From Escherichia coli (lineage in GTDB: Bacteria; Pseudomonadota; Gammaproteobacteria; Enterobacterales; Enterobacteriaceae), in the NCBI RefSeq assembly GCF_003334355.1, contig NZ_QOWP01000001.1: DNA of 64,000 nucleotides; one strand, written 5' to 3'. The position numbers and the translations under genes are program-made. This document shows, piece by piece, positions 22,446 through 24,524 of the stretch (position 1 is the stretch's first letter; each line of letters starts with the position of its first letter). The notes below the pieces were generated by a model. The model was not told where the DNA came from, did no database searches, and saw only the letters and a program-made list of their open reading frames with translations.

Positions 22446-24071
22446 TCAACCCTGCCCTTCAGGGGTGGGGTTACCTTGCTTATCCTCTGTAAACTCCTTT
22501 CTGAGCATCACATAATCGAAAACATCATGGTTTGCATCCACAACCCGTGAGTCTCCTTTATAGTGTGCAATCACTTCCTCAAGCGTTTGCGGCTGTTCCG
22601 GCTTTGTTACCCCCATCCACGCATTAATAAGGTAATTATTGTAAGCTGTCGAAAAGATGTTGTTTTCCGTTGTGCGATCCACGCCATCCCCAAGAACGGG
22701 GCTATACCAGATAAACATCGGGACATGATATGCCTGCTGGCTAGCCTCCCTGCCTCCATGAAAATAGACGTTCTTCTTCGTAGGGTCACGTTCCAGGCCG
22801 TGGTCGGCAAAATACATGACCGAGGCGCGGCGATCTTTTAATAATTCAAAAACCTGACCTAGCAAACTATCTGTGTAATGAATGGAGTTGTCATAGCAGG
22901 CATCCTGATCGTCCTGCGGTTGAAACACGGCGCTGGATTGCGGATAGGCGCTACAAGCCGGTTCATGGCTTCCATTTAAATGAAGAACAATCAGTTTCTT
23001 TTGCTGCGTATTTTGCTGTAATGCTTGCGATAAATGCGGCAACAACAATTCATCAAATCCTCTGACATAAACTGTTTCCATGGCGCGCATGGCGATACTG
23101 GTAACTGCTGTACCATTCTGCCGAAAAGCGGATTGCGAGCTTAGCCAGAAAGTCTGAAATCCTGCTTGATTAGCCATATTAATAATGTTGTCGGGGTAAT
23201 TATGAATGTCATGACTCAAAACAGAATCAGCAGTTAAAGAAAGGGGAACCGACAGCGCAGTGTAAGGTGCGCCGCTTATTGCTTGATTAAACAGTTTGAT
23301 CTGTTTTCTTTGTGCTTCAACTTGCGGTGTCGTAGAGCGTGTATATCCATACAAAGACATATTGTCGACACGTACAGACTCCCCCACAATCAACACGTAG
23401 GTATCAATACCTGTATCCCTGACTGATAATTGAAAATACGGCACCGTGTTTGCAATTGAGAGTAATCTTTGATGCTCTTTCGCTGCTAAAGCAAAATAGT
23501 TGAGATTGAAAAACGGCGTATAGGTAGCAAATCGCGACGCTAGTATATATGGACTGAACGCTTTTTTATTTTTTGCATCTTTATAAGCAAATTGACAAGC
23601 GGAAAATAAACTGCCCGAAATGACAATCAGCAATAATATTCCTGTCACTTTTTTTGTCGGCAAGGAAACATCATATTTTATTATTACTGCCAAAAAAAGA
23701 AGGGATAAAAAAGCAAAGGCACATAGATAAGGGATATACATCCCCAGCATTTTGACAACTTCATCCGGATCACTCTGGAGCACACTAATCGCAAATCCAT
23801 CATTGAAAGTTGTACCAAAGGTACACCATGAATAGAGGCTAATACTCATGTCTGCCGCAGTCAGTAACACAAATGGTGCGGCAACAAGCAGGCGAAGCGG
23901 AAGGGATGATATACGTTTTACAACCAGGATGGTCAGAACGAAGAACAGCAAGCGCTGAACCATATGCGCGCCGGAAGAGGCGACTAAGTTCGTAATACCC
24001 AAAACAATAACACAAAGATACAACAACCAATGAGATTTAAAACTTCTAGCAAATTTGTTGAATACTGTCAT
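22446..24071 (-). CDS. yhbX: Putative phosphoethanolamine transferase YhbX (EptA/sulfatase family), 541 aa
   Basis: ORF track 22446..24104; trimmed to internal ATG giving MTVFNKFARSFKSHWLLYL; N-terminal membrane helices plus sulfatase-like domain; AT-rich relative to neighbours. Confidence 0.88.
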   Translation of the reverse strand: MTVFNKFARSFKSHWLLYLCVIVLGITNLVASSGAHMVQRLLFFVLTILVVKRISSLPLRLLVAAPFVLLTAADMSISLYSWCTFGTTFNDGFAISVLQSDPDEVVKMLGMYIPYLCAFAFLSLLFLAVIIKYDVSLPTKKVTGILLLIVISGSLFSACQFAYKDAKNKKAFSPYILASRFATYTPFFNLNYFALAAKEHQRLLSIANTVPYFQLSVRDTGIDTYVLIVGESVRVDNMSLYGYTRSTTPQVEAQRKQIKLFNQAISGAPYTALSVPLSLTADSVLSHDIHNYPDNIINMANQAGFQTFWLSSQSAFRQNGTAVTSIAMRAMETVYVRGFDELLLPHLSQALQQNTQQKKLIVLHLNGSHEPACSAYPQSSAVFQPQDDQDACYDNSIHYTDSLLGQVFELLKDRRASVMYFADHGLERDPTKKNVYFHGGREASQQAYHVPMFIWYSPVLGDGVDRTTENNIFSTAYNNYLINAWMGVTKPEQPQTLEEVIAHYKGDSRVVDANHDVFDYVMLRKEFTEDKQGNPTPEGQG

Positions 24072-24493
24072 CCAGAAATCCAAGTTCACAACCAATATAA
24101 ACAATTATCAACAATGTTCAATTTTATATCAGACATGTTTTTCAACTCTGATCCATATCAGACCGAAACACTGTTAGTTTTTTCTTTTTAAATGATGCGG
24201 CCATTGCGTTCTCAGTAATTAAATAACATTATCAATGCGTCTCTAAACATTACGCAGAACGTAGCCATCAGTAGTTATACTGACAGGAGCAGGATGGTTT
24301 ATCGAGAAGTAAACATATCCGTATTCGTACCGGAACTGGAGTTGACACAATAAAGTGCCAATTATGTCAGCAGAAGGGAAAAGTTTATAACTAAGGCGTA
24401 CCGGCACCATCGTTTCAAGGTACCAGCTACGAGTAAAGCAACTGGACGAGATACAGATACCTGACAACCATTCCTCAGACCAGGACCAAAACG

Positions 24494-24524
24494 AAAAAAG
24501 ACGCTTTTCAGCGTCTCTTTTCTG
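24494..24524 (-). terminator. Intrinsic terminator of the secG-leuU transcription unit
   Basis: Hairpin agacgcttttcagcgtct with U-run on the minus strand immediately after leuU. Confidence 0.75.

Follow-up and report, generated by a model that had tools for sequence, protein, structure and literature searches.

Introduction

Integrase-free chromosomal hotspots of horizontal gene transfer, situated between conserved core genes, were reportedly described by Oliveira, Touchon, Cury and Rocha (Nat Commun 2017). The yhbX gene of Escherichia coli occupies a slot between argG and the tRNA gene leuU, and is analyzed here in a 64,000-nucleotide stretch of contig NZ_QOWP01000001.1, referred to below as the window. 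This slot shares several properties with such hotspots. The flanks, argG on one side and leuU-secG-glmM on the other, are syntenic across genera, the cargo between them differs, mobile-element hallmark genes are missing, a tRNA gene is adjacent, and homologous recombination in the flanks could account for the exchange of cargo. The E. coli slot differs from the hotspots in being very small, with one gene, and in alternating between deep alleles of one family rather than holding a rich repertoire. The second point of comparison is the group of islands associated with the tRNA genes selC, pheV and leuX. The yhbX cassette shares with them its adjacency to the 3' end of a tRNA gene, an atypical composition and a variable presence among strains and species. 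It departs from them in lacking an integrase and tRNA-derived direct repeats, in having its junction past a terminator, and in measuring only 2 kb.

The encoded protein is related to EptA (PmrC), EptB, EptC (CptA), OpgE and MCR, with which YhbX shares an N-terminal multi-helix membrane domain followed by a periplasmic sulfatase fold (PF00884). YhbX keeps the residues that align with the threonine nucleophile and metal ligands of Neisseria meningitidis EptA (NmEptA), and its family has plasmid-borne members, as do the mcr genes. YhbX differs from EptA, EptB, CptA and MCR in missing their curated cut-offs, and nothing here ties it to polymyxin resistance. H-NS-silenced xenogeneic DNA is the remaining described system. 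The cassette resembles such DNA in an AT content well above average and in the insertion sequences (IS) that it receives, and differs from it in that TCGATAAATT, a 10-bp sequence that we take to be a high-affinity H-NS site, is not clearly enriched.

The explanation that we consider probable is that window positions 22431-24486 are a horizontally acquired accessory cassette, composed of yhbX and its own AT-rich 5' region, which resides in an exchangeable, integrase-free slot and is swapped by recombination in the flanks. The slot would extend from the argG stop codon to the terminator of the secG-leuU operon. Entry of the cassette into the Escherichia lineage would predate the diversification of E. 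coli, and the cassette would thereafter have diverged together with its flanks under purifying selection. Replacement of whole cassettes through homologous recombination in the conserved flanks would account for a helix-turn-helix (HTH) cassette found in about 4% of E. coli, for the deeply diverged yhbX of Escherichia fergusonii, and for the presence, within one divergent lineage of E. coli, of a tract of the E. fergusonii type. YhbX would be an inner-membrane enzyme with intact catalytic residues. For the assignment of a function, yhbX would then count as an acquired gene in a swappable slot, under purifying selection. The evidence consists of the composition, boundaries, distribution and divergence of the cassette and the conserved catalytic residues of its product.

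Results

Base composition and codon usage of yhbX

An earlier note on this DNA had described yhbX and its upstream region as visibly richer in AT than argG and secG-glmM, and base counts across the window bear this out. The guanine-plus-cytosine (GC) content of the interval 22446-24500 is 0.423, compared to 0.519 for the whole window and 0.526, 0.493 and 0.543 for argG, secG and glmM, respectively. The GC content is 0.430-0.432 for yhbX, 0.393 for the intergenic DNA at 24105-24529 and 0.424 for the measured cassette interval 22439-24487, which places the cassette about 9-10 points under its surroundings. The minimum GC of any 2,055-bp segment in the entire 64 kb begins at 22476 (0.419; window mean 0.519, standard deviation 0.026), and the minimum of any 425-bp segment begins at 23976 (0.351). 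No other part of the window deviates as strongly in composition as this AT-rich patch. The intergenic distance of about 460 bp given in the note also agrees with the measured yhbX-leuU interval of 458 bp (24072-24529), although the first ~45 bp beside leuU are the conserved secG-leuU terminator and lie outside the AT-rich insert.

The same result is obtained gene by gene. Of the 60 annotated genes of the window, yhbX ranks last both in GC (0.432, z = -3.2) and in GC at third codon positions (GC3; 0.425, z = -2.4). It also has the most atypical codon usage, calculated as a synonymous-codon likelihood relative to the other 59 genes (z = -12.0), and the runner-up is nlpI with z = -6.8. The nearby membrane-protein genes mtr, yhbE, mlaE and yrbG have GC3 values of 0.56-0.65, which means that the AT-richness of yhbX is not an artefact of amino-acid composition.

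Slot variants within E. coli

Several complete E. coli genomes match window positions 22000-25100 with 100% identity, and the annotated gene order is argG (+), yhbX (-), tRNA-Leu (-), secG (-) and then glmM. The slot was classified in 5,426 complete E. coli genomes. The yhbX cassette, at 80% or more of its length, is present in 5,167 of them, the HTH cassette stands in its place in 237, an E. fergusonii-type allele 69% identical to YhbX is found in 9, and the slot is otherwise disrupted or unclassified in 13. With one occupant at 95%, the slot behaves almost like core genome within E. coli. The earlier note held that the arrangement matches K-12 and is not strain-specific; the latter holds only in part, as the 237 genomes with the HTH cassette and the 9 with the E. 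fergusonii-type allele show the slot to be polymorphic. The HTH cassette is 1.2 kb long, unrelated to yhbX, and codes for a 317-amino acid protein in which only a short N-terminal HTH match was found, with no NCBIfam family and no convincing PADLOC family. All slot variants are AT-rich, with GC contents of 0.42, 0.41 and, for the HTH cassette, 0.37. The ~4% of natural isolates without yhbX are usable as natural knock-outs.

A three-way alignment of the variants defines the ends of the exchanged segment. Homology stops within argG codons 446-447 and restarts straight after the T-run of the leuU terminator, and the DNA between these boundaries is the one part of the locus in which the three E. 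coli variants are not homologous. The two terminal argG codons (22430-22435, plus strand) differ with the slot variant and encode GQ, VK or AK. The argG genes of HTH-type and yhbX-type genomes have 4 differences, at positions 1324 and 1337-1339, 3 of which fall in the last two codons, and the glmM of HTH-type genomes is identical to that of some yhbX-type genomes. The homology limits and the flank identity of the HTH-type genomes therefore place the variable unit at ~22431-24486, an unstranded segment of ~2.06 kb for which its GC content and the variant counts are further evidence. The right boundary is the intrinsic terminator of secG-leuU (24493..24522, minus strand), a 13-bp stem followed by a T-run that is kept in all slot variants. 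These sharp boundaries and identical flanks fit homologous recombination in the flanks as the route of exchange.

The 9 genomes carrying the E. fergusonii allele are one clone, represented by AST85 (NZ_AP043644.1) and 8 related genomes. At an unlinked locus this clone is at most 98.1% identical to every other E. coli. From ftsH to infB, over at least 11.8 kb that include the slot, it is 99.0% identical to E. fergusonii. This is the appearance expected of an import by homologous recombination that carried the cassette along, and we infer such an event for the AST85 lineage.

The slot in other species and the wider YhbX family

A genome collection scanned with ArgG returned at least 14 other Enterobacteriaceae species, and the matches listed include no Salmonella, E. 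albertii or other named Escherichia species. In the 14 species among the matches listed, argG, the slot, leuU and secG keep this order, followed by glmM where the contig extends so far. Eight of these 14 species, namely three Citrobacter, Phytobacter, three Enterobacter and one metagenome-assembled genome, have an empty slot (117-307 bp); the slot is short (481-568 bp) in 2 and filled with unrelated cargo of 1.7-8.4 kb in 4. The cargo is a MisL-like autotransporter and SfnB in Pluralibacter gergoviae, an AraC-family/RclR-like regulator and an AhpD-like protein in Kluyvera, Agp, an SDR protein and a PrpA-like phosphatase in "Escherichia sp. ESNIH1", and small unnamed open reading frames (ORFs) in Pluralibacter sp. 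A tblastn search at 1e-5 found no YhbX homologue in the slot of any of the 14 listed species, so yhbX is not universal at this position in enterobacteria. At least 7 distinct slot contents, the empty state included, occur across the 14 listed species, E. coli and E. fergusonii. A second variable slot lies on the other side of leuU in Citrobacter youngae and C. werkmanii, where an insertion of ~3.9 kb separates secG from glmM (L007 10931-14805 and L008 11969-15841).

An exhaustive search for YhbX among 1.84 billion representatives of clusters formed at 50% identity yielded only 122 with E<=1e-30. Outside Escherichia, the closest of them are 41-48% identical to YhbX and come from Buttiauxella, a Pectobacterium, Mixta gaviniae and Microvirgula, and Proteus follows at 35%. 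The relatives are sporadic and sit in genomic surroundings that bear no relation to argG-leuU. A Buttiauxella-type copy is located amid type I restriction-modification, TIR, HNH, WYL and AlpA genes in a mobile island. A copy with 64% identity is borne by the 62-kb E. coli plasmid pRHB40-C01_2, the one plasmid analyzed from 7 tblastn matches; the other 6 (4 E. coli, 2 Proteus mirabilis) were left out as records of 4-5 Mb or 354 kb, well above the usual size of a plasmid. The matches from word-indexed searches with YhbX and with the E. fergusonii allele were nearly all near-identical E. coli sequences, and the clusters at 68-88% identity to YhbX were fragments that revealed no intermediate species. 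A foreign composition, the lack of yhbX from the slot of the 14 listed species and a sporadic family with plasmid-borne and island-borne members give good support to the description of this DNA in the earlier note as older, horizontally acquired material. The YhbX homologues on pRHB40-C01_2 and in the Buttiauxella-like island each have an EcsC-family gene within a few kb (L111 5966-6628 and L102 8636-9277, respectively), which hints at a shared module.

Probable exchange without an integrase

The position of the cassette directly downstream of the leuU 3' end and its atypical composition could also be explained by the decay of a tRNA-targeted island, in which an integrase-bearing element inserted at the leuU 3' end and all but yhbX was later deleted. 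We consider this improbable. An origin of this kind would be in line with the island on the Buttiauxella-like contig, where AlpA-type and replication genes accompany the YhbX homologue, and with the listing of 'yhbX'-annotated genes together with intA/intS in predicted islands of avian E. coli (PMC12054123). At the argG-leuU slot itself the expected remnants are absent. yhbX is the sole gene in 22439-24529, the HTH and E. fergusonii variants are likewise single-gene, and none of the three contains an integrase. The ORF list of the slot holds no ORF of 80 amino acids or more beyond yhbX and its antisense ORFs, and none of the 10 larger ORFs tested from the slots of the four cargo-bearing genomes of other species matched an integrase in NCBIfam. 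The sequence common to the variants runs through the terminator, and the junction is not inside the tRNA.

The best local match to leuU does involve the 3' end of the tRNA. TCAACTCCAGTTCCGGTAC, a 20-nucleotide sequence at ~24326-24345 on the minus strand, agrees with it at 16/20 positions. It was rejected as an attachment (att) repeat: 25% of dinucleotide shuffles equal the match (p ~0.25), and its location ~190 bp from the tRNA, not at the far (argG) end of the cassette, is wrong for att. The repeat search also returned a 15/20 match to the leuU anticodon arm, which scores no higher and was rejected as well. With no integrase, no significant tRNA-derived repeat and a junction after the leuU terminator, the view of leuU as a classic integration target that the earlier note proposed finds no backing. 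The locus is a clean, small, integrase-free transfer hotspot beside a tRNA gene, and illustrates that tRNA adjacency alone does not imply integrase-mediated insertion.

Deeply diverged alleles and residence in E. coli

Synonymous sites distinguish the history of the cassette within E. coli from its history between species. In comparisons with two of the most divergent E. coli alleles, the proportion of synonymous differences (pS) in yhbX is 0.08-0.09, compared to 0.01-0.16 in the flanks, and the ratio of the nonsynonymous to the synonymous proportion (pN/pS) is 0.07-0.09. Nucleotide diversity (pi) at third codon positions across 15 genomes is 0.035 for yhbX, 0.055 for argG, 0.065 for glmM and 0.026 for secG. 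The diversity of yhbX matches that of the flanks, so its residence in E. coli predates the diversification of the species, and the word "ancient" in the earlier note is apt in this sense. The pN/pS values indicate that yhbX is under purifying selection.

The E. fergusonii yhbX occupies the same slot with only 68% amino-acid identity to the E. coli allele. Between the two, yhbX has a pS of 0.758, which is saturated, and a nonsynonymous divergence (dN) of 0.217, compared to a synonymous divergence (dS) of 0.04-0.33 and a dN of at most 0.005 in seven flanking genes. Fourfold-degenerate sites differ at 100/147 positions in yhbX (0.68; saturation ~0.74) and at 147/1,322 in the seven flanking genes (0.11). 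The copy on pRHB40-C01_2 is equidistant from both alleles, with 64% and 67% identity and 0.65-0.68 of fourfold sites differing. Selection on the protein cannot saturate synonymous sites, and the E. coli and E. fergusonii alleles are therefore xenologous or a very old polymorphism rather than simple orthologues. A local mutational hotspot is unlikely because synonymous diversity within E. coli is normal. The deeply diverged natural yhbX alleles are on hand for comparison when a function is assigned. In glmM, synonymous divergence is above that of its neighbours both within E. coli (pS 0.12-0.16 vs 0.01-0.12) and to E. fergusonii (dS 0.33 vs 0.04-0.20), possibly as a result of recombination imports.

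These values also bear on the idea that yhbX is an ancestral gene inherited vertically and lost in most lineages, with an AT-richness that arose from low expression, relaxed codon selection and AT-biased mutation. Poorly expressed genes tend to have weaker codon bias, and the idea draws on the presence of yhbX in >95% of E. coli, on its co-divergence with the flanks within the species, and on the E. fergusonii version in the same slot and orientation. We regard it as very unlikely. That version is the one whose synonymous sites are saturated when those of the flanks are not, and the normal synonymous diversity within E. coli speaks against a mutational explanation of the difference. Vertical descent would further require loss from all 14 other species among the matches listed, 8 of which have the minimal slot, and the nearest relatives, which are non-syntenic and occur on a plasmid as well as within a mobile island, speak against it too. 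The HTH cassette that can take the place of yhbX exceeds it in AT content, and other low-expression and membrane-protein genes nearby are no comparable outliers.

Hardest to credit is divergence in place, by which the 68% identity would stem from rapid diversifying selection and not from replacement by a foreign allele: envelope-modifying genes are often under diversifying selection, and the alleles share slot, orientation and length (541 and 531 amino acids) and align end to end with one gap, but protein selection does not account for the fourfold-degenerate sites, pN/pS is at most 0.25 between the species and as low as given above within E. coli, which is purifying rather than positive, the upstream regions of the two alleles are without shared homology, and the plasmid copy is equally far from both.

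An acquired cassette in an exchangeable slot is the explanation that we retain, and several points weigh against it. No donor lineage was identified. The YhbX homologues of Mixta (GC 0.61) and of the Buttiauxella island (0.54) are GC-rich, which shows that AT-richness is no family trait, and the composition of yhbX therefore reflects donors or amelioration rather than the protein. Homologous recombination as the mechanism of exchange is deduced from the sharp boundaries and from one long import tract. The absence of YhbX from Salmonella enterica LT2 and Citrobacter rodentium is taken solely from the protein list of a published phosphoethanolamine-transferase tree, in which YhbX is not listed for either, and the same source states that no function is established for YhbX (PMC4013655).

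The feature is of an ordinary kind and will not surprise specialists; the alternation of deeply diverged alleles of one orphan enzyme in one slot is mildly unexpected. A more speculative proposal, which we think possible but unlikely, is that the argG-leuU slot is a miniature allele-replacement locus for an envelope-modifying enzyme, in which xenologous yhbX alleles of the chromosomal E. coli type, the E. fergusonii type and a plasmid type (64-69% identity, with saturated synonymous sites) and the unrelated HTH gene are swapped and kept by diversifying or frequency-dependent selection. If so, phage or host pressure on the phosphoethanolamine modification of the cell surface would be an example of such selection, and the slot would work like the O-antigen or capsule loci at the scale of a single gene.

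YhbX belongs by sequence to the phosphoethanolamine-transferase superfamily

yhbX (22446..24071, minus strand) encodes 541 amino acids, and an in-frame TTG at 24104 is an alternative start that would extend the protein to 552. Kyte-Doolittle hydropathy, the sole method applied to the membrane region, gives about five N-terminal hydrophobic segments (~16-34, 41-59, 61-79, 113-131 and 144-162). The sulfatase-fold domain PF00884 covers residues 224-467 (Pfam, E = 3e-56). A phmmer search aligned YhbX residues 41-460 with full-length NmEptA (PDB 5FGN, 6e-24). In this alignment Glu231, Thr271 and Asp423/His424 of YhbX stand opposite Glu240, Thr280 and Asp452/His453 of NmEptA, and His369 and His449 stand opposite two more conserved histidines, presumably His383 and His465 in the NmEptA numbering. 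We take the threonine to be the catalytic nucleophile and the glutamate, aspartate and histidines to bind metal.

YhbX falls outside the curated EptA, EptB, CptA and MCR families. Its NCBIfam scores are far under the cut-offs for EptA (122 vs 561 and 94 vs 660 bits), EptB (105 vs 493), CptA (143 vs 404) and the MCR families (32-71 vs 1,075-1,250), and the generic lipid A phosphoethanolamine-transferase domain model gives 157 bits with a cut-off of 500. Every curated cut-off is widely missed, and YhbX is therefore not an EptA, EptB, CptA or MCR equivalog. The label "EptA-like" in the earlier note is accurate for the fold and probable chemistry, and does not extend to the family assignment. By sequence, YhbX is a member of the phosphoethanolamine-transferase superfamily in an orphan subfamily, and its predicted activity is the transfer of phosphoethanolamine from phosphatidylethanolamine to some envelope acceptor. 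The paralogues in E. coli K-12 are EptA, EptB, CptA, YbiP and YhbX, and YbiP is likewise without an assigned function (PMC4013655).

The upstream region and H-NS

The cassette part of the yhbX upstream region (24072..24486, minus strand) is AT-rich, and neither the E. fergusonii nor the HTH variant has homologous DNA upstream of its gene. Two pairs of sigma-70-like hexamers, which overlap, are located at 24132-24104 and 24121-24094, 22-60 bp upstream of the annotated yhbX ATG. A peak between yhbX and leuU is listed for the RpoH holoenzyme in an in vitro systematic evolution of ligands by exponential enrichment experiment (PMC5493296). Rfam at E<=1 detected no hidden RNA upstream of yhbX and returned tRNAs, the rimP leader and sub-threshold chance matches. 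Two pairwise comparisons at 99% identity had suggested strong constraint on this region. The suggestion was dropped: pi within E. coli is 0.009 (15 genomes), which is below that of third codon positions and ordinary for E. coli intergenic DNA.

A possible H-NS silencing of the cassette was approached through sequence features. 10-mers with at least 8 A/T are threefold as frequent in the cassette as in the window, and A/T tracts are twofold as frequent. The motif TCGATAAATT is not clearly enriched: with up to 2 mismatches allowed, it has 4 matches in 2.08 kb (1.9 per kb), and its frequency in the window is 1.27 per kb. yhbX (b3173) is absent from the supplements of the H-NS chromatin immunoprecipitation and expression studies PMC4720273, PMC4288151, PMC11335895 and PMC12460168. 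IS2 and IS1A disrupt yhbX in some complete E. coli genomes, IS1 disrupts the HTH cassette in another, and a chromosomal integration of blaCTX-M-15 near yhbX was reported in Shigella sonnei (PMC9973847). PMC11335895 presents H-NS-bound DNA as a transposition target, and the IS2/IS1 and blaCTX-M-15 insertions would fit that role anecdotally.

Neighbouring genes and other observations

The conserved left flank of the slot is argG (21095..22438, plus strand), which encodes argininosuccinate synthase. On the right, leuU (24530..24616, minus strand) is a tRNA-Leu(GAG) gene by ARAGORN and Rfam (RF00005, 52.8 bits), with its 3' end towards the cassette. It is followed by secG (24631..24963, minus strand), a conserved flank that has the same orientation as leuU and is syntenic in other species, and by glmM (25191-26528) beyond secG. 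argG and yhbX are convergent, with stop codons 7 bp apart (22439-22445), and the pair is named among candidate excludons with overlapping convergent transcription (PMC12288877). In the annotation of strain C, the region past gltD holds a fragment of a transposase and a truncated DUF1016 pseudogene (strain C locus L004 1-742, corresponding to window ~63260-64000). A second AT-rich dip, with a GC content of 0.41-0.44, is located at window positions 20600-21200 in the divergent intergenic region of metY and argG, and the rimP leader (RF01770, 102 bits) and a tRNA-Met gene are at 20482-20582 and 20671-20747, respectively.

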